Assembly (NCBI GenBank): GCA_030603485.1
Contig: JAUVXS010000002.1
Span: 1-33,225 of the forward strand
DNA from: Dehalococcoidia bacterium
GTDB lineage: Bacteria; Chloroflexota; Dehalococcoidia; GIF9; AB-539-J10
Direction: 5' to 3'
DNA length: 33,225 nucleotides
Every line of letters begins with the position of its first letter. Within the stretch, counting starts at the first letter, position 1. The position numbers were made by a program, and so were the translations under genes. The notes under the pieces are model-generated. The model searched no databases. It was not told where the DNA came from and saw only the letters and a program-made list of their open reading frames with translations. Below, in pieces: positions 2,996-17,649 of the stretch.

Positions 2996-3616
2996 ATGAA
3001 AACGAGCCAAGAAAAACATAAAGTTGAGGGAGAGAAACAACTAGAAGACCAGACAAAATCAAAAGCATCACGTTGGTTATGGTTGAGGAGATCACCAGCA
3101 CTTCTGGACGCATTAAGAAGGCTGTTTGAACCCCCTAAAAGACTCATTGAACCCTACGTTAAAGACAGTCAGGTGGTTGCTGACCTTGGTTGTGGCTCAG
3201 GTTACTGTACGCTCGCTTTGGCTGAACTCGTTGGTTCTGAAGGAAAGGTCTACGCAGTTGATTTGGATAGAAAGTGTATCCGAGCATTAGAGAAAAGGGC
3301 AAATAAAAGTGGTTACCGCAACATTGAAGTACACGCTGTATCTGCAGCAGATGTTAGCTTCATAAAAGACAGGTCCGTTGATTTCGTTCTTGCCAATGGC
3401 CTGTTATGTTCCATGGCTGACAACCGACAGTCAGCTGTGAACGAAATAAAGCGTATCCTCAAGTCAACAGGCCAGGCGTACCTTAGCCTGGGTTTTGGCC
3501 TTCCTCTTGGTTTTGTGGGCCAAGCGGAGTGGGAGAAAACACTTGAAGAATTCAGGGTTGAACAAGGGGGTAGTTACAAAGAAAAGTGGGCTGTGGTTTC
3601 CCTAAGAAAAGAGTAG
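2996..3616 (+). CDS. Class I SAM-dependent methyltransferase
   Basis: Motif I VADLGCGSGYCT and a post-I acidic residue (VYAVDLD). Methyltransf_11/25-like length. Confidence 0.85.
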   Translation: MKTSQEKHKVEGEKQLEDQTKSKASRWLWLRRSPALLDALRRLFEPPKRLIEPYVKDSQVVADLGCGSGYCTLALAELVGSEGKVYAVDLDRKCIRALEKRANKSGYRNIEVHAVSAADVSFIKDRSVDFVLANGLLCSMADNRQSAVNEIKRILKSTGQAYLSLGFGLPLGFVGQAEWEKTLEEFRVEQGGSYKEKWAVVSLRKE

Positions 3617-3839: not shown

Positions 3840-4592
3840 CTAATCGGCATGAGAAGGCTTACGAAACAGATACATCGCCCAACCAAGCGTATCACGACCC
3901 CATTGTAAATAATTCTTTCGTCCATGAGCAACGCGAGCTAGTATCTCCGGTACATCAGGGTCATCCGGGTTATCCCTGGCATACCTTTCGGCCGCATACC
4001 ACTGAAGCGTCTCGTACCGGTCCCAATCGTCCTGATTGCTGGCCATTGTGTACAGCGGGAACAAGCCTTCGTCTTCGCCGACAAGTACGTTCTCGTAGTG
4101 CGTCCCAAACATATCACGCGTGTGGTTCTCGGCAGCCAGATACGCGTCACCCGGCTCCTTAAGCCAGAAGGGTTCTCCGACGAGAATGAGGCCACCCGGT
4201 TTCGTCATAGCCTTCAAAGCACTTAAAGTCCCCCGATGTCCCTGATATACCCATGAAGCACCGATACACATGGCAAGGTCGAAGAGTTGGTCGGGGCTAT
4301 GGTCTGCTCCGTCCATGTTGAGGATTTCGATTTGAGCAACAGGCACCCGTTCCTGCAACTTCTGTTCTGTGGCCGCCACGCAGTATGGGGAGATGTCGAC
4401 CCCGACTCCGGATACCTCGTATCGTTCCGCCAACCTTGCCAGCATCTCCCCCTTGCCGCAGGCAATGTCGAGTACGGCAGACCCTGGATTCAGTTTCAGG
4501 AGCTCAATTAGCGAGTCGAGCTTCGCTGTACTCATCGGATTGCAGACTACATGGTAGCCATGCGTCACGCTGAAAAATTTCCATATATCCAT
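3840..4592 (-). CDS. Class I SAM-dependent methyltransferase
   Basis: Motif I VLDIACGKGEM, VGVDIS, and a later PGGLILVGEPFW segment. AAAGGAG SD upstream of ATG 4592. Confidence 0.85.
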   Translation of the reverse strand: MDIWKFFSVTHGYHVVCNPMSTAKLDSLIELLKLNPGSAVLDIACGKGEMLARLAERYEVSGVGVDISPYCVAATEQKLQERVPVAQIEILNMDGADHSPDQLFDLAMCIGASWVYQGHRGTLSALKAMTKPGGLILVGEPFWLKEPGDAYLAAENHTRDMFGTHYENVLVGEDEGLFPLYTMASNQDDWDRYETLQWYAAERYARDNPDDPDVPEILARVAHGRKNYLQWGRDTLGWAMYLFRKPSHAD

Positions 4593-4647
4593 CTTAATTT
4601 CTCCTTTAATTCAGGTAGGGTGATAGTAATGCAAATATGCCTCCCGC

Positions 4648-4737
4648 CAGCCAAAGAAATACAGGCTAATCCTAATTATACAACTTACTAGGTCGGTTAA
4701 GTTTGAGGATAGTCTGAGGCTTTATCGTAATATAACT
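4648..4737 (+). repeat. Relic repeat Z, copy 1 (decayed 3' end of an island-type integrase gene)
   Basis: Translates to QLTRSVKFEDSLRLYRNITSH*, compared with the intact integrase C-terminus RYTRSVQFEDSLKLYTSIME* at 13321. About 75% identical to 5480-5569. Confidence 0.65.
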
Positions 4738-5012
4738 AGTCATTAGAGCCCGCCATTGCCCAATCCAAAGGGCATACCCCCTTCTTGATATTCAGATGTC
4801 TGTCTCTGACCTATTTGGATTTTGGCAGTGATGCTTGGCTTAGGCTGATTTGGGGAAGCTCTGTAAGAGGAAAGATAGCGAAGGAACGGGAAGATGAAAG
4901 AGCAAGAACTGAGCTGCTATAAATGAGGTTAGCCGACGTTTCTATAGTAAGTATTTTGATGAACTTGAAAAAGAATAACAGGAAGTTGTTTTAGCATTGT
5001 TAAATATATAAA

Positions 5013-5363
5013 TTATCTACAGCTACTGCTAGGAATTTCTTCTTCTGGCGATTCAAGTTTCGCTAATCTATCATTAAGACCTGTCATATAGCCTTCAGAG
5101 TAAGCTGCTCCATCCTTTTCATCCCTGGAAAAGTCGGATGATGGGGGGAGGTCAAAGTAGTAAGCATCCATATAGCCAAACCATTCAGGTGTGTTCGGAG
5201 AATATGGTGTAGGTAGAGAAATAACATAGTCCAAAAAAACGTCTGGGTCAGATAGATTTCGTTCATTACTAGGGGGAGATTTTAGATAATAGAGACCAGT
5301 AACTAATATCGCAATGCCAGCTACCAACATTGCTAGCAGAATATAGGATTTTCTTCCTCTCAT
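5013..5363 (-). CDS. Hypothetical membrane-anchored protein
   Basis: 116-aa ORF with an N-terminal TM helix (ILLAMLVAGIAILVTGLYY) and a weak AGAGAGG SD. No recognisable domain. Confidence 0.45.
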   Translation of the reverse strand: MRGRKSYILLAMLVAGIAILVTGLYYLKSPPSNERNLSDPDVFLDYVISLPTPYSPNTPEWFGYMDAYYFDLPPSSDFSRDEKDGAAYSEGYMTGLNDRLAKLESPEEEIPSSSCR

Positions 5364-5479
5364 TTTGCCTCTCTTGACATTCTATTAGATTTCAAAACCT
5401 TTTGTCATACCTCCAACCAACATCTGATAGAAGACCTCCAAGGGAAGCCCTCTCCAAATCCACTGGCTGGGCTGGCTAT

Positions 5480-5569
5480 CAGCCAGAAAGATAAATCCTA
5501 ATCCTATTATACCACTTGTTAGTTCAGTGAAGTTTGAGGATAGCTTGAGGCTATATCGGAGGATTGAAC
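5480..5569 (+). repeat. Relic repeat Z, copy 2 (decayed integrase 3' end)
   Basis: Translates to SSVKFEDSLRLYRRIEQ. Collinear with 4648-4737 and with the end of the intact integrase gene. Confidence 0.65.
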
Positions 5570-5765
5570 AAAACCGAGGATTGTTCAATCAGACCGATCC
5601 GCACTTAAATAAAGCCAGTTTTCGTGCAACAATTGTGGCTCTTCTCTAGAATAGGTGGACTCTGTCTGACTAGTGAATACGGCCCACTGCACAAATGGGG
5701 AAGTATCCTCCGCTTCTTCAGGTGCTGTCTCCTAGTGTCCGTTTGTTTACCGAGTCTGCCAGCTT

Positions 5766-12344: not shown

Positions 12345-12422
12345 AGGGGTGTGGCTCAGTTTGGCTAGAGCAGCGGTCTCCAAAACCGCAGGTCGCGGGT
12401 TCGAGTCCTGCCACCCCTGCCA
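12345..12422 (+). tRNA. tRNA-Trp (anticodon CCA), 3' CCA encoded
   Basis: Cloverleaf folded by hand: acceptor AGGGGTG/CACCCCT, D-arm GCTC/GAGC, anticodon stem GCGGT/ACCGC with loop CTCCAAA, T-arm GCGGG-TTCGAGT-CCTGC, discriminator G plus CCA. Confidence 0.9.
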
Positions 12423-12423
12423 G

Positions 12424-12506
12424 GCCGAGGTGGCGGAATGGTAGACGCGGCGGACTTAAAATCCGCTTCCTGCAAGGGAGTGTGGGTTCGAGTCCCTCCC
12501 TCGGCA
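12424..12506 (+). tRNA. tRNA-Leu (anticodon TAA), type II with a long variable arm
   Basis: Acceptor GCCGAGG/CCTCGGC, anticodon stem GCGGA/TCCGC with loop CTTAAAA, a long variable arm, T-loop TTCGAGT (one U-U mismatch in the T-stem), discriminator A. Starts 1 nt after tRNA-Trp. Confidence 0.88.
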
Positions 12507-13321
12507 GTAGCCAAAGTGGTAAGCAACTGGTAGGCAATTTCCTCAAGTCCAGACGGGAAGGTCTAAGTCCTCAGTCAATAGAGTTCTACGAAGGTTATCT
12601 GAGGCTTGCCAATACCGTCATAGGATTCCACATCACAGGTCAGGATATATCCCAATTCCTCAGCAATCTTGGCTGTAGCAATGGTGGCAAACATGCTTAC
12701 TACAGAGCCCTTAGAGCTTTCTACAACTGGTTATATTCCCCGAAAAGTGGCCATGGTCTAAATCCTCAGGATAATCCTATGCTGTTGGTGGAAAGTCCAA
12801 AGGTAGAAAGGAAGATACTACCGAGCCTGACAACGGAGCAGTTGGACTATCTCATAGACCAGACTGAATGTATCCGGGATAAGGCTATCATATCCTTGTT
12901 TGCTGACAGTGGGCTACGCTTATCGGAACTAGCCAATATTGACCAGGCTAACATTGACTGGCAACATCGGTTAATCAAGGTCGTTTGTAAAGGGAATAAG
13001 GAAGGACTTGCTCCCTTCGGTCAAAGGACTGAGAAGCTACTCAAGGAATGGCTATCACAACATCGTGCTGGTGGTAAGCTATGGGACATAAGAGAACGGG
13101 GAATAGCCTGGATGCTTTGGAGACTGGAAGCTAAGACAGGTCTTCCTTGTAATGCTCACACTTTCCGAAGGACATTTGCCAGCATCCTATCCAAGAGAGG
13201 GGTAGATTCCCTCCACATTATGAGGCTTGGCAGGTGGCAATCCCTGGCGATGGTAGACAGATACACAAGGTCAGTCCAGTTTGAGGATAGCCTTAAGCTC
13301 TATACCTCCATAATGGAGTAG
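12482..13321 (+). CDS. Tyrosine-type site-specific integrase
   Basis: SAM-like N-domain (SPQSIEFYEGYL...YYRALRAFYNWL). Catalytic boxes DSGLRLSEL (R), HTFRRTFAS (HxxR), LGRWQSLAMVDRYT (W...Y). The only canonical start before the N-domain is GTG 12482, inside the tRNA-Leu T-arm. Confidence 0.85.
   Translation: MGSSPSLGSSQSGKQLVGNFLKSRREGLSPQSIEFYEGYLRLANTVIGFHITGQDISQFLSNLGCSNGGKHAYYRALRAFYNWLYSPKSGHGLNPQDNPMLLVESPKVERKILPSLTTEQLDYLIDQTECIRDKAIISLFADSGLRLSELANIDQANIDWQHRLIKVVCKGNKEGLAPFGQRTEKLLKEWLSQHRAGGKLWDIRERGIAWMLWRLEAKTGLPCNAHTFRRTFASILSKRGVDSLHIMRLGRWQSLAMVDRYTRSVQFEDSLKLYTSIME
12518..12538 (+). promoter_or_regulatory. Paired GGTA(A/G)GCA motif next to attL (candidate arm-type recombinase site)
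   Basis: ggtaagcaactggtaggcaat matches 17557-17577 (ggtaagcagatggtaagcaat) at 18 of 21 positions. A third pair is at 13765-13794. Confidence 0.35.
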
Positions 13322-13322
13322 C

Positions 13323-13637
13323 TCAGGACATACCGAGACAAATTCTGAGTTTCAAATTCGAACCTGTTTCGCCCAAGACAGAGATAGACTCCCGCGCTAC
13401 ATCACATTCACCTTCAGGGTAAAGGATTTCGCCTCTCCTCAGGGCAAACTCCGCGCGACGGTCGGCTGGTCCAGGCGAGATTCCGAAGCTTGAGCGAAAA
13501 ACCTTCTCTCCTCGCAATGACAGGGGGGCGTCTTCCGTAATGACCAGTGGGAGTGTCATTGCCAGCAAAGCGCTGTAATCCATCGGCACGGTCGCTAGTT
13601 GCTCTTCGTCGCTGGTAGAATCATCTGTATTGTTCAT
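13323..13637 (-). CDS. Hypothetical protein (doubtful)
   Basis: 104-aa ORF convergent with the integrase. No SD and no recognisable motif. Confidence 0.25.
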   Translation of the reverse strand: MNNTDDSTSDEEQLATVPMDYSALLAMTLPLVITEDAPLSLRGEKVFRSSFGISPGPADRRAEFALRRGEILYPEGECDVARESISVLGETGSNLKLRICLGMS

Positions 13638-14017
13638 AGTACTAATGGACTATTACCTTTCTCCTAGTACTAGTCGCAAAAAAGGGGAAAATCCCTCGCT
13701 CCTCCAGTACTCCTGATTGACTTTCTTCCGAGGGGAGTAGCAATCCGTTGTGGATAGCTAAATTGGTAAGCACTTACCTTTGTGCTGGTAAGCAAAGGGT
13801 GGAGTCTCCCTACTTATCTCTTCTGAAAGGATAGGTATCTTCATCTCTGAGGACTACACCTACGAGCTAGCTATATGTGATACCCCCTACCCTTGCCCTC
13901 TCTCCTTCTCACCTACGCTCACCGAGCCAATATCTGCTCGTAGAGAAAATCCAGTCAGGCTTAGAATATTCGGGATTACATAATCAACTCAGGCTACGAG
14001 TGTGGTAAAATAGGAAT

Positions 14018-14557
14018 ATGGAAGAAACCTATTATATTTGGCAGATTATTCTCGTTGGGATTCTTGTTGCAGTCACTATATACTATGCTATTCAAACACA
14101 CCGTCAGGCTAACCTCCTCAAGAGACAGATGGATGAAACCCGCTATATCCACAATATAGCGACTCTGAAGCAATCTATAGAACAGATATACGAATGGGCA
14201 CAATACGGAGTTAATGAATACTGTATTCCTGGGCTTGGGCGTTTTGATAGAGGCAACTATCCTGTAAGTACAAAAGCTACAACACACTTGGTATTATCAG
14301 GTGCTAGGGCACTGGGCAATGCTTCGTATATCGGAGGCGATTTGTGGGATAATGTAAAGCAGGCATATGATTCTATGGAGACAGTAGTTGCATCTCTGGG
14401 GGTGGATACTACACTTGAACTTCTATCAGACTCAGAATATGAACGCCATATTGAGGATTTCCAGAAATCTTTACAAGCTCTTTTAGACAAATTCTCAGAT
14501 GTGATGGTGGCATGCCGTAATTTAATGGTTGGGTTAGACATGGAAACATACGGATAG
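14018..14557 (+). CDS. Hypothetical protein, N-terminal TM anchor plus helical domain
   Basis: 179-aa ORF. TM helix IWQIILVGILVAVTIYYAI. AT-rich island cargo. Confidence 0.5.
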   Translation: MEETYYIWQIILVGILVAVTIYYAIQTHRQANLLKRQMDETRYIHNIATLKQSIEQIYEWAQYGVNEYCIPGLGRFDRGNYPVSTKATTHLVLSGARALGNASYIGGDLWDNVKQAYDSMETVVASLGVDTTLELLSDSEYERHIEDFQKSLQALLDKFSDVMVACRNLMVGLDMETYG

Positions 14558-14752
14558 TTTTCTGATGCATTAGAATCCCTTTGTTTACAACCTTCCTCTT
14601 GCCCTCTCCAAATCCACCTAGCTTAGCTAGTCATCGGCTAATCATGACTTCATCCAAGATTAGTGGCTCTGAAGGACTACCAGAATCAAGCCAACTAAGT
14701 CTGTTGTGCCGTCTTACCTGTTCTTCTGTAATTTCCTTTAAATGTCCGTAGT

Positions 14753-15409
14753 CTAGCCCCGATAAGTACATATCATGAATAATTTATCTTTATCTTTGTA
14801 GAACATGAGCCATGTGATTGAGTTAGTAGGGTCATCCTTCATTGTGTTTCTCCAATATGTAACTACACCATTGCCTAAGTCCACCCTTTTTGCACCCTTT
14901 ATGGCTTCGTCAAGCGGAGGAGAAAGGAAACGCTCAGGTTTACCATTTGCGTAGTCCACGAGTATTTGTACATTTTCTGGCAATATAGCACCTGTGTCCA
15001 AGTAGTAAAGACCTTTCGCAATTTTACGCAAGACACGATTGATGACCTCTCCATCCATTTCTAATACCAGCGTACGACCAAGCAATGCACCAGACTCTGA
15101 TATTACTCTTGCTTTTCTTATGTATGACCTTATGGTTGGCTTCAACAATGGTCTACGACCTTTCAGGTCTGGGCGAATCCTCTCGTTCCAAATGCGGAAG
15201 CCAGGCTCATTTTCATAAGCCATTCCCGAAGCTAAAAAAACTCTGAATTTTTCCTCATCACTGGACAAAGCATTATTACATTCAGTACACGCAGGCAATG
15301 TTCTAAGATTGGCTGGCAAAGGTTTATTAAACAAGCTACTAGGGAAAAGATGGTCTCTAGTATCAGCTAGTTTAGAACCACAGAGATAGCACTTTTTGCT
15401 AATAGACAA
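14753..15409 (-). CDS. HNH-nuclease-like protein with an unknown C-terminal domain
   Basis: N-terminal CYLCG...TRDHLFP...LPACTECNN gives two CxxC pairs plus the His and Asn of a beta-beta-alpha-Me finger. TTG start with a GAAGGTGA SD. About 150 aa of unassigned C-terminus. Confidence 0.6.
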   Translation of the reverse strand: MSISKKCYLCGSKLADTRDHLFPSSLFNKPLPANLRTLPACTECNNALSSDEEKFRVFLASGMAYENEPGFRIWNERIRPDLKGRRPLLKPTIRSYIRKARVISESGALLGRTLVLEMDGEVINRVLRKIAKGLYYLDTGAILPENVQILVDYANGKPERFLSPPLDEAIKGAKRVDLGNGVVTYWRNTMKDDPTNSITWLMFYKDKDKLFMICTYRG

Positions 15410-15451
15410 GTTGTCACCTTCTCTTCAACAGCCTGTAAATCCATCTATCTA

Positions 15452-15649
15452 CTACCCATCAGGCAAAGTATACATGGTAATCGTAATGGTAGCACTTGCC
15501 GAGGAATTGCCTGTCTTGCTTACGCTACCAGTCACCTCATTATCAGGGATGCTGGTATCAGCAATAGCAATGCGAGTATCATTTAAGCCAAGTAGGACTA
15601 ACCCTACCAGAAGGATTGCAAGGGTGACTACAGTGACCAGGCTCTTCAC
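15452..15649 (-). CDS. Small hypothetical secreted or membrane peptide (doubtful)
   Basis: 65-aa ORF with a GTG start and signal-like LVTVVTLAILLVGLVLLGL. Lies 42 nt upstream of the HNH-like gene. Weak SD. Confidence 0.25.
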   Translation of the reverse strand: MKSLVTVVTLAILLVGLVLLGLNDTRIAIADTSIPDNEVTGSVSKTGNSSASATITITMYTLPDG

Positions 15650-15810
15650 TTCAACCCACTCTTAAATCAATTATAGGCTTGAATAGCTACAGAAGCAATA
15701 CCCTTGAAGGGTAAATGTGACCAAGTGCAAGGGAGCACCGCACTACGCTAAACCAGAACATGAGGAACGCTAGTGTTCAGCCTACGATGTTATATAATAA
15801 GGGAAGTAAA

Positions 15811-16614
15811 ATGACTTCACAAAGACCCAAGATTATCCATCACCAGAACAATTTAAGTGGGTATGTCGGTAACTGGCGTCTCTTAATGAATCAAATTTTG
15901 AAGGTGCAACCTCCTATTGATATTCCACGAGAACTAGTTTCTCTGGGTGACAATACCCATGATTTATCTGTAATGCTTTCATATCTGGACGCTAACCTGA
16001 CAATACTTGAGGAAACACCAGATGTAGCTGGTCAGCAAATTAACTATTTAGCTTATGCTGAGGCAAGGAGTTTCTTGAAGGCGTGTTATATGTTAGTCCG
16101 CATATTGTTTGATGATGTATCAGGGGTAATTAAGTATTTTTACGACAAGAAAGAACCAAATTCGGGAGTAACTAAAAGTTTTGATAAACTTCTTAGTAGA
16201 GCTAAGAATGGGAAATTGCCTGAAGACCTTTCTACACTACTCAAACAAACCATTGTAAATTTTCCTGAAATGAGAAACAGGAGAGTTGATTTGGAGCATT
16301 ATTATGAATCTCTTCTGATTTCTTTTAGGCACGATGAAGAAGGTAAAACCATTCTTGGACATTTCAGCACGAAGCAACGCCCTGCCAAAGAGTATGAAGA
16401 TATTAGGCAATACTTTGGTTCTGTTCTTTGCGAGTATCAGACTTTAATTGACAGTTTGCTTGACCATTTTGATGCCAAGTTCGTAGATTGGTACAGATTC
16501 AAACCGCACAGAGATTTAAATATTCTCCAGGGATACGCAGGCATTATGTTATGGTGGGCGTGCAAGTATGGTAACTACAGGCACAAAGACTTAGTAGTAA
16601 TTGAGAGTGATTAA
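15811..16614 (+). CDS. Hypothetical soluble protein (ORFan)
   Basis: Start placed at ATG 15811 (AAGGGAAG SD 5 nt upstream); the ORF is open from 15760. No motif recognised. Confidence 0.55.
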   Translation: MTSQRPKIIHHQNNLSGYVGNWRLLMNQILKVQPPIDIPRELVSLGDNTHDLSVMLSYLDANLTILEETPDVAGQQINYLAYAEARSFLKACYMLVRILFDDVSGVIKYFYDKKEPNSGVTKSFDKLLSRAKNGKLPEDLSTLLKQTIVNFPEMRNRRVDLEHYYESLLISFRHDEEGKTILGHFSTKQRPAKEYEDIRQYFGSVLCEYQTLIDSLLDHFDAKFVDWYRFKPHRDLNILQGYAGIMLWWACKYGNYRHKDLVVIESD

Positions 16615-16711
16615 TACTGACACTAGACAACAATTCTGTATGCTCTATACTACTGCGAGGGATAGAATCATAATATATCGAGAGAAACGGAAAGGAGGTT
16701 AAGCAAGGAAG

Positions 16712-17275
16712 ATGTCGAATAGTTTACAACCAGAGCAAATTACGGACGAGCAGCGACGAGTATGGTTAACCGAATACCAAGTTTGTCAACAACATAATGA
16801 CGCTATTGGGTCACAAGCCTGGGTGAGCACAACTATATTTCTAACGATAAATGTGGCTTTGTTGGGTGGTCTCGTCTATACACTCATGACAAACTTAGGA
16901 AGCAGCAGTTCAGAATTACGACTCATAATATTAATCAGCTTCATAGCACTAAGCGTAGGAATACTCTTGATTTTAAAGAAATGGGTGAATTGGTTAAAGA
17001 GAATGAGATTTACGGCATCAATTAATTATGAAAGGATGGGTCAAATAGAGCGATTCCTGGGAATGAGGAAACATACAATGTGCTACGAGCTTGACGAAGA
17101 ATATCGCCAAGTGAAGACATCAGCCGCAAGAAAAGAGTTTAATAAAAGGAATGAACCCTTCAAATACTTCAAGGCAAGTGGATTTGATGGACTAATGTTC
17201 ATAGCTAAAACATTAATGGGACTATGGTCTTTATCAATCTTACTATTGTTGATTGCACTAACTATTTCACCCTAG
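16712..17275 (+). CDS. Hypothetical 3-TM membrane protein
   Basis: Strong GGAAAGGAGG SD. TM helices WVSTTIFLTINVALLGGLVYTL, LRLIILISFIALSVGILLIL and LMGLWSLSILLLLIALTI. Lies 97 nt after the preceding ORF on the same strand. Confidence 0.6.
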   Translation: MSNSLQPEQITDEQRRVWLTEYQVCQQHNDAIGSQAWVSTTIFLTINVALLGGLVYTLMTNLGSSSSELRLIILISFIALSVGILLILKKWVNWLKRMRFTASINYERMGQIERFLGMRKHTMCYELDEEYRQVKTSAARKEFNKRNEPFKYFKASGFDGLMFIAKTLMGLWSLSILLLLIALTISP

Positions 17276-17342
17276 CGAGCTTGGGGGGGAAGGTTAAGGA
17301 AGGGGGGCGTAGCCCCCATCCCAGGAGTTGGGTTACTTCTCC

Positions 17343-17483
17343 CTAAGATACTGCCCCTGTCCAAATTTCTTCAATTACTCCCTCTTTACACTTGGGGCAG
17401 GTTTCTCCGACCATCTCAAGTTCCGTTTTGACATTCTTTGACTTGCACTCGGGACATTCTCTCGTGTCTTTCTTCCGCTTCAA
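17343..17483 (-). CDS. Possible small zinc-ribbon protein (below the ORF-track size cut-off)
   Basis: My own translation: LKRKKDTRECPECKSKNVKTELEMVGETCPKCKEGVIEEIWTGAVS*. Only TTG starts are available (17483, 17495 or 17501), and the SD is weak. Confidence 0.3.
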   Translation of the reverse strand: MKRKKDTRECPECKSKNVKTELEMVGETCPKCKEGVIEEIWTGAVS

Positions 17484-17556
17484 CCTAACATACAAAGTCA
17501 ACCTATCACTACACGGGAAGAGACCACCTAGTGATAGGGTTGCTCAAGCTCTAAAC

Positions 17557-17592: not shown

Positions 17593-17649
17593 GGACTTAA
17601 AATCCGCTTCCTGCAAGGGAGTGTGGGTTCGAGTCCCTCCCTCGGCAGT
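17593..17649 (+). repeat. attR: 57-bp copy of the tRNA-Leu 3' part (anticodon stem to 2 nt past the discriminator)
   Basis: Identical base for base to 12452-12508. Confidence 0.92.

Follow-up and report, generated by a model that had tools for sequence, protein, structure and literature searches.

A tRNA-Leu island of a Dehalococcoidia bacterium, probably a mosaic of separately circulating cargo genes, carries a HEPN-family gene that appears to have arrived as a single-gene cassette

Do two neighbouring genes on a small tRNA island form one defence system, or have they come to lie side by side by separate routes? This question was raised by a window of 33,225 nt from a Dehalococcoidia bacterium (positions 1 to 33,225, forward strand, of contig JAUVXS010000002.1, assembly GCA_030603485.1), in which a gene for a 267-aa protein, assigned here to the HEPN_Cthe2314 family or its immediate vicinity (15811-16614), is followed on the plus strand by a gene for a 187-aa membrane protein (16712-17275), with a gap of 97 nt between them. 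An earlier reading made from the letters alone (hereafter the sequence-only reading) had listed the open reading frames (ORFs) of the island, all of which are present, and had taken these two genes for a sensor and membrane-effector pair. To evaluate the pair, we compared 22 independent HEPN loci, 16 from species-representative genomes and 6 from metagenome contigs, with six independent contexts of the membrane-protein gene (L018/19, L020, L021-24, L046, L047 and L048). The membrane-protein gene was found in 0/22 HEPN loci, using a profile hidden Markov model on the 16 genome loci and phmmer/BLAST with the window protein on the metagenome contigs, and the HEPN gene was found in 0/6 membrane-protein contexts. 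Because the partner was missing on both sides and joint inheritance fails, the proposed pair is contradicted: the HEPN and membrane-protein genes are not a conserved unit.

The wider surroundings of the HEPN gene were equally diverse. Its neighbours included a MiaB-like radical-SAM gene, acyl-CoA dehydrogenases, a HicAB pair, tRNA-Gly, tRNA-SeC and integrase relics, and when all ORFs within 3 kb were clustered, no family occurred in more than 3 of the 22 loci. This census agrees with the 2013 HEPN survey of Anantharaman et al., in which the Cthe_2314 family is listed with an Rx4-6H motif and with 'None detected' for contextual associations (PMC3710099). Among 301 genomes of the class, HEPN was present in three, the membrane protein in two (one of them a weak match) and the HNH nuclease of the same island in seven, and the three families occurred together in this genome only. 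Both sampled genomes of the same genus lack the HEPN, HNH and membrane-protein genes.

DNA comparison suggested how the two genes came to adjoin. A blastn search of the island against all loci resolved it into three separate blocks: one with orf65, a gene for a 65-aa protein; one with the HEPN gene, its leader and its tail; and one with the membrane-protein gene. The orf65 block, together with upstream DNA, stops at 15675 (against L018) and the membrane-protein block begins at 16649/16650 (against L018 and L021), while the limits of the HEPN block were 15751-16650 against L027, 15729-16656 against L029 and 15802-16656 against L030. The leader of this block holds a Shine-Dalgarno-like AAGGGAAG, and its tail ends in CTATACTACTGC. 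In L018 the orf65 and membrane-protein blocks lie 75 nt apart with no HEPN gene between them, which makes L018 5864-5939 the empty site. The membrane-protein gene of L018 is preceded by a TTGACA-17-TAGAAT promoter; the window keeps TAGAAT only, and the -35 side is replaced by the cassette tail ...GCTCTATACTACTGC. The tail as it stands in the window also follows the HEPN gene in L029, L030 and L027. On these alignments, the HEPN gene is to be seen as a cassette of about 0.9 kb that was apparently inserted in the interval separating orf65 from the membrane-protein gene, at a point within the promoter spacer of that gene. The 97-nt 'pair' would thus be a secondary juxtaposition, since the cassette entered at the orf65/membrane-protein site.

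At the right junction of the cassette, a putative 7-nt microhomology, CTACTGC, can be deduced from the window and L018 sequences. In the closest HEPN locus, L029, the cassette lies between the copies of a 17-nt imperfect direct repeat, AAAGGGAGGCACTGTAC / AAAGGGAAGCACCGCAC, at 2105-2121 and 3074-3090, and the second copy is followed by a TTGACA box, as at the L018 empty site. No terminal inverted repeats or target duplications common to the HEPN loci were found. The cassette tail also contains a promoter-like TAGACA-16-TATACT at 16624-16651, which is a consensus match only. In the leader (15755-15800; also present in L029, L027 and L003) we observed an inverted repeat, GAACA...TGTTC in the window and GAACT...AGTTC in L003, just upstream of TTATATAAT and the Shine-Dalgarno-like box; it might serve as an operator or fold into an RNA hairpin. 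A LexA box (GAAC-N4-GTTC) was considered for this repeat and rejected on account of the wrong spacing.

The same site has received other genes in related loci. In L031 (5465-6548) it is occupied by an unrelated 267-aa gene in the opposite orientation, and a 344-aa protein with multiple transmembrane (TM) segments replaces the membrane-protein gene; in L043 (9423-10743) the Zn-ribbon and orf65 homologues are separated by a 373-aa gene. Neither the 267-aa protein of L031 nor the 373-aa protein of L043 matched Pfam or PADLOC, and the possibility that the former is a diverged HEPN paralogue was dismissed at an hhalign probability of 2%. From these comparisons, the HEPN insertion site behaves as a cargo-exchange hot spot that appears to be bounded by conserved linker DNA. 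The features of the island are collected in Table 1.

Table 1. Features annotated on the tRNA-Leu island and its borders (window positions)
Feature	Positions	Strand	Basis or remarks
tRNA-Leu(TAA), integration target	12424..12506	+	ARAGORN; Rfam tRNA 60.8 bits; 3' part forms attL
attL copy of 57-bp repeat	12452..12508		3' part of tRNA-Leu(TAA)
Tyrosine integrase, Xer-like	12482..13321	+	PF00589 2.5e-23; phrog_1 integrase 6.7e-32
104-codon ORF, doubtful gene	13323..13637	-	Within 0.4-kb DNA-conserved segment 13321-13730
179-aa protein, N-terminal TM anchor and helical C-terminal part	14018..14557	+	TM 3-28 (hydropathy)
Stand-alone HNH_5 (beta-beta-alpha-Me) nuclease, predicted	14753..15409	-	HNH at residues ~1-55, then ~165-aa C-terminal domain
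orf65, 65-aa protein with signal or anchor segment	15452..15649	-	TM 1-30 (hydropathy)
HEPN single-gene cassette, ~0.9 kb, putative	15751..16656	+	~60-nt conserved leader, ORF, ~40-nt conserved tail
267-aa HEPN_Cthe2314-family protein, predicted metal-independent RNase	15811..16614	+	Profile matches of homologues; R157/H163 motif
Retained -10 box TAGAAT of the membrane-protein gene's native promoter, predicted	16663..16668	+	Comparison with L018 empty site
187-aa three-TM protein, borderline Pfam 8xMP (PF24838)	16712..17275	+	28.3 bits, cut-off 30
52-aa Zn-ribbon protein, CxxC-17-CxxC	17343..17501	-	Zn_ribbon_3 5e-5
attR copy of 57-bp repeat	17593..17649		Duplicated tRNA 3' part

For the 267-aa protein, more than 212 homologues with identities of 54-89% were collected, and 32 sequences, down to 54% identity, were aligned. 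R157 and H163 (R-x5-H, ...MRNRRVDLEH...) are invariant in all 32 and fit the Rx4-6H motif of the HEPN superfamily. PF18730 (HEPN_Cthe2314) was matched by 16 of the 32, with a best E value of 5.6e-8, and in a rescan five of six homologues exceeded its gathering cut-off of 27.1 with scores of 27.5-33.4 bits (P0071, 32.4; P0085, 33.2; P0097, 33.4; P0078, 27.5; P0088, 27.6). The matching homologues are about 60% identical to the window protein and cover profile positions 40-170 of 174. Since the window protein itself falls under detection, the HEPN assignment draws on these homologues together with the motif. It is based on profile and motif rather than on fold, because the Foldseek matches to HEPN toxins, HepT (6m6u_G, E 0.36) and a second HEPN toxin (8yuf_B, E 1.3), were not significant. 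The AlphaFold2 model, with a predicted local distance difference test score (pLDDT) of 85, consists mainly of helices, and a beta-hairpin is inserted after the motif; hydropathy gave no TM segment. Taken together, the sequence comparisons suggest that the 267-aa protein belongs to or next to HEPN_Cthe2314.

The homologues are spread over Chloroflexota, Planctomycetota, Actinomycetota, Desulfobacterota and one archaeal metagenome-assembled genome (MAG), with 44-64% identity across phyla, and the HEPN gene showed pairwise ratios of nonsynonymous to synonymous substitution rates (dN/dS) of 0.10-0.20. Like the PF18730 family, this clade keeps an Rx4-6H motif, here as R-x5-H, and has no conserved gene neighbourhood. 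Unlike it, the clade has proteins of about 267 aa with an extra N-terminal helical region, the beta-hairpin insert and a C-terminal extension, its gene can be delimited as a cassette of about 0.9 kb, and it includes an archaeal MAG, whereas the survey lists the Cthe_2314 family as bacterial. A toxin-antitoxin arrangement of the HEPN-MNT type (type II/VII) was looked for as well, with no nucleotidyltransferase domain found in the island and no recurrent neighbour in the HEPN loci.

The island on which these genes lie is a genuine integrated element, as the sequence-only reading had held. A perfect 57-bp direct repeat (100% identity, repeat search) recurs with a spacing of 5141 bp, and the cargo has a G+C content of 0.38-0.44 against 0.47-0.50 in the flanks. 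The translated integrase shows the catalytic R...K...HxxR...W...Y residues; against the NCBIfam XerA-like model it reached 1.8e-32, which is under the equivalog cut-off. The tRNA-Leu(TAA) is 100% identical to that of G212, a same-genus genome that is 99% complete and has the same tRNA cluster. The G212 site was counted as empty because its tRNA-Leu(TAA) directly precedes the TackOD1 gene, which in the window adjoins attR. No replication, packaging or capsid-redirection genes were found in the island, PHROG matches being confined to the integrase and the HNH protein, and an Rfam scan (E up to 1) returned two tRNAs only. The host assembly is itself a MAG of 1.36 Mb, 58% complete, with 30 tRNAs.

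The second nuclease candidate is the 218-aa HNH protein, in which a CxxC...DH...CxxCN signature had been noticed from the letters. The signature is conserved in 27 homologues: C7xxC10, D19-H20, N34 and C41xxC44-N45 are invariant or nearly so, with C7, C10, H20 and C44 invariant and N34, C41 and N45 conserved in at least 90%. The protein matched HNH_5 (PF14279) with an E value of 2.6e-5 at 24.5 bits (gathering score 27.5), its homologue P0139 reached 26.4 bits, and about 14 homologues carry a precomputed PF14279 match. It shares the CxxC...DH...N...CxxCN beta-beta-alpha-Me core of that family in canonical residue order. About 100 full-length homologues were found, and pairwise dN/dS of the gene was 0.19-0.23. 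The C-terminal domain of about 165 aa is alpha/beta and strongly conserved, and the AlphaFold2 model (pLDDT 83) gave no significant Foldseek match against PDB and BFVD; on these searches the domain appears to be novel. Resemblances to an RnlA N-terminal or PAS-like domain (E 0.01-0.04, TM-score about 0.2) were judged unreliable. Weak PADLOC matches to PDC-M01B (9.7e-6) and Septu PtuB (3.2e-4) were limited to residues 2-67. Unlike those HNH modules, the HNH motif here is N-terminal and followed by the domain of about 165 aa that lacks a structural match, and the homologues are solitary; unlike Septu (PtuAB), the island has no PtuA-type ATPase ORF or other partner. In three unrelated contexts the homologues stand alone, between an HD-domain gene and a histidine kinase (L034), adjoining an RF-1-like gene (L032) and, within a decayed tRNA-Gly element, next to a B12-binding/mutase operon (L031). 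The homology stops at the ORF borders, with no conserved target flanks.

The 187-aa membrane protein has TM segments at 36-60, 66-95 and 160-187 by hydropathy. Its 8xMP match covers profile positions 2-99 of 136 (E 1.8e-6), and among its 15 homologues P0123, which is 74% identical, scored 31.7 bits against the cut-off of 30, P0121 27.7 and P0133 25.5 bits. One TM helix, at the C-terminus, is additional to those of the 8xMP (octameric membrane protein) family. A literature search on 8xMP / PF24838 found no paper. Pairwise dN/dS of the gene was 0.31-0.58.

The sequence-only reading had described the cargo as an all-ORFan set, and this did not hold: homologues numbered more than 212 for the 267-aa, about 100 for the HNH, 15 for the 187-aa and 17 for the 179-aa protein, and HEPN_Cthe2314, HNH_5 and 8xMP could be assigned. 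Its other statements on the cargo fared better. Profile searches placed the proteins among neither housekeeping nor phage-structural families; the HEPN, HNH and membrane-protein genes are under purifying selection among homologues (dN/dS 0.10-0.58); and hydropathy assigned three TM segments to the 187-aa protein, a single one to each of the 179-aa and 65-aa proteins and none to the 267-aa protein, in keeping with that reading. Structure prediction, which it had proposed, yielded the confident models described above for the HEPN and HNH proteins, and the accompanying Foldseek search yielded no significant fold match. Profile searches against PDB sequences likewise gave nothing for the HEPN, HNH and membrane-protein families. 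Where homologues of these three have named sources, Dehalococcoidia or Chloroflexota are among the labels.

That the cargo might be a defence or abortive-infection module could be upheld in part. The HEPN and HNH domains and the rare, patchy occurrence of the genes are in its favour, whereas the island proteins gave no significant PADLOC match (weak HNH-motif matches only), no partner ATPase or other system component, and no conserved pair. The HEPN, HNH and membrane-protein families had no match in GenBank phages or IMG/VR, and PLSDB plasmids, searched for HEPN only, gave none either. This absence argues for host-side accessory genes and leaves their function unaddressed. Among known systems, AbiD, AbiF, AbiJ, AbiU2 and AbiV are HEPN domains (PMC3710099) and ApeA is one of the defence systems listed as containing HEPN (PMC10952713). 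The 267-aa protein resembles them in standing alone, in its conserved R...H dyad and in having domains besides HEPN, and its gene is accessory, patchy and island-borne, but searches of Pfam and PADLOC linked its sequence to none of those families. A two-gene HEPN-TM antiphage system, with proteins described from Staphylococcus saprophyticus, has been reported on phage-inducible chromosomal islands (PICIs), as cited in PMC12948488 and bioRxiv 10.1101/2025.08.01.668193. In layout it is the closest analogue, since here too a HEPN gene stands beside a co-oriented membrane-protein gene on a small integrase-bearing island; unlike it, the present genes are not co-inherited and seem to have been brought together by cassette insertion, and the island is without PICI replication or packaging genes. 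A conflict role for the cargo is plausible because two of its proteins have nuclease domains typical of conflict systems, the genes are extremely patchy, the site is an island with a hot spot, and HEC-09-like and SNase genes occur in sibling variable regions.

Based on these results, we consider it probable that the island is a small (5,141-bp) integrase element with a mosaic of independently circulating cargo genes. An element with an integrase as its only mobility function would have inserted into tRNA-Leu(TAA), and its cargo would be a mosaic rather than one system, with genes that circulate separately among Dehalococcoidia-like and other anaerobe genomes: an HNH_5 nuclease, a HEPN_Cthe2314-family protein, an 8xMP-like protein and two small membrane-anchored proteins, with the Zn-ribbon gene as presumed backbone. 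The HEPN gene, together with a leader of its own, would travel as a cassette of about 0.9 kb, and the protein would act alone as an Rx5H RNase, its helical N- and C-terminal parts gating the activity. The HNH protein would be an independent DNA nuclease. Most plausibly, the HEPN gene would encode a stand-alone RNase like those of abortive infection (Abi) or toxin systems, and likely modes would be single-gene abortive infection, as for AbiD/AbiF/AbiJ/ApeA, or an addiction toxin. That it gives phage defence on its own is a tentative proposal, to which we assign somewhat less than even probability.

Several observations weigh against this reading. The window's own 267-aa protein matched nothing in Pfam at E up to 1, whether scanned as 15760-16614 or as 15811-16614, and Foldseek of its model against PDB gave nothing at E <=0.001. 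PADLOC had no match for either the HEPN or the membrane-protein family. If the HEPN protein is an active RNase that stands alone, its activity must be controlled, and we could point to no such mechanism. No mobilisation mechanism was found for the cassette, and flanking direct repeats occur in one locus only (L029). The interval between the HEPN and membrane-protein genes contains no terminator-like site, and in this genome the two genes may by now share a transcript and work together, a linkage that would be new. Most of the contigs that carry homologues are short metagenome fragments, and MAG binning limits taxonomic statements.

The uninterrupted 97-nt interval and shared orientation are what the alternative of a two-gene sensor/effector defence system of the HEPN-TM kind would start from, along with the combination of a HEPN-family protein and a three-TM protein on a small integrative island and the precedent on PICIs. 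We regard it as very unlikely, given that the two genes were together nowhere else in the 22 HEPN loci and the six membrane-protein contexts, that DNA homology points to a cassette inserted into the promoter of the membrane-protein gene, that in L018 this gene has its own TTGACA-17-TAGAAT promoter without HEPN, and that PADLOC returned no matches. A related idea, which we rate as quite unlikely though a shade less so, joins both histories: an autonomous single-gene Abi cassette, crossing phyla and landing in intergenic promoters, would here have just created a co-transcribed HEPN-TM unit. If this were true, the island would be a snapshot of the birth of two-gene HEPN-TM defence systems.

It is unlikely, to a slightly lesser degree again, that the nuclease genes are purely selfish, the HNH protein being homing-endonuclease-like and the HEPN protein an addiction toxin that stabilises its element. 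Both genes are solitary and patchy, lie in unrelated intergenic contexts near tRNAs or integrase relics, and the HEPN cassette brings its own leader; in one genome the HEPN gene is directly beside the HicAB pair. Against this, the HEPN loci share no recurrent antitoxin partner, similarity to the HNH gene does not extend past the ORF into conserved target flanks, as noted above, the phage and IMG/VR searches found neither gene and the plasmid search, made for HEPN only, found no copy, and purifying selection that stays strong across wide divergence is in keeping with a maintained function. Least probable of all appears a cargo with no conflict role, in which the HEPN-like protein would serve RNA processing or nucleotide binding and the membrane proteins would be envelope or transport proteins on a decaying element. 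The fold search fails to confirm a HEPN toxin fold, nothing matches PADLOC, the function of 8xMP is not known and many HEPN families are not toxins (PMC3710099), which would all suit it; the invariant Rx5H dyad, the extreme patchiness with both sampled same-genus genomes lacking all three genes, the cross-phylum spread at 44-64% identity and the variable hot-spot location alongside HNH, HEC-09-like and SNase genes speak against it.

Under the mosaic reading, the Cthe_2314 HEPN family would gain its first delimited genetic context, namely a single-gene cassette that is self-contained, spreads horizontally and is under strong purifying selection. It also follows that genes on a tRNA island that plausibly resemble a 'soluble sensor plus membrane effector' pair can owe their proximity to chance cassette insertion, which calls for caution in predicting defence from context only. 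Finally, a family of very small (2.7-5.1 kb) integrase elements would be documented in an uncultured Dehalococcoidia-like genus, with cargo apparently swapped at conserved intergenic linkers.

Related small elements were seen both in this genome and in its relatives. On contig C104 of the same assembly (4300-5760), a second integrase, 61% identical to that of the island, lies beside rpsI/rplM, with an orf65 homologue and a small tautomerase-like ORF directly after it. In the same-genus genome G345, a sibling element of about 2.7 kb occupies tRNA-Ala(GGC) (L044:7666-10430); it comprises an integrase, a 124-aa TM protein, a Zn-ribbon homologue, a 104-aa ORF and an HTH_17 excisionase-like gene, has the translated tRNA end GSNPISSTSL at both ends, and may be the minimal backbone of this element family. 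At L018:4791-5195, a 134-aa ORF matches the C-terminal half of the PADLOC candidate HEC-09 (8.6e-18) and, weakly, NYN; it is probably a truncated candidate defence gene. An SNase gene is present in sibling variable regions, as is the HEC-09-like gene.

The Zn-ribbon peptide, suspected from the letters, was borne out by its CxxC-17-CxxC pattern and by homologues 70-83% identical in three same-genus genomes. In this family of elements the gene is conserved at the far end; L043 has it at the terminus of its element, and in the 2.7-kb element of L044 it adjoins the integrase. Because related elements recur with the Zn-ribbon gene, it looks like element backbone, or a gene with a regulatory role, judging from position, and the rest like exchangeable cargo. 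Homologues of orf65 were found in three related elements, namely L018/L019, C104 beside the second integrase, and L043, with pairwise dN/dS of 0.29-0.60. Members of the small family to which the 179-aa protein belongs share the anchor and vary in their C-termini: an HMMER search of 1.84 billion representatives gave 17 matches, the best with 58% identity over the full length, and no significant Pfam, PADLOC or PHROG match was obtained.

The ORF at 13323-13637 had no family match in Pfam, PADLOC, PHROG or NCBIfam and one homologue in the 301 genomes, with DNA 77% identical, protein about 65% identical, a 30-codon indel and a dN/dS of 0.47. In G212 the counterpart of segment 13321-13730 (L038:8742-9241) is repeat-rich intergenic DNA between pilin and PilT genes, where the surrounding repeats translate as ...LLAMT...CHCE... 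in several frames. The ORF is doubtful because the DNA of its homologue is more alike than its protein and has an indel amid repeats; by comparison, the segment looks more like a repeat or non-coding element than a 104-codon gene, and the ORF would be non-coding or weakly constrained.

Two further observations concern the borders and spacers of the island. The tRNA cluster of G212 (L038:4548-5239) has seven genes (Ala, Arg, Trp, Leu-GAG, Gly-GCC, Cys and Leu-TAA), while in the window (12345-12506) tRNA-Trp is followed directly by tRNA-Leu-TAA, and tRNA-Cys, Gly(GCC) and Leu(GAG) were found nowhere in the 58%-complete host assembly; the shorter cluster may reflect a deletion between the two tRNA-Leu genes. 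Within the island, the intergenic stretches 13734-13802, 13937-13966 and 17284-17321 are 83-97% identical to intergenic DNA of L020, L018/L019, L031 and L043, and may be shared regulatory or terminator linkers for cargo exchange.

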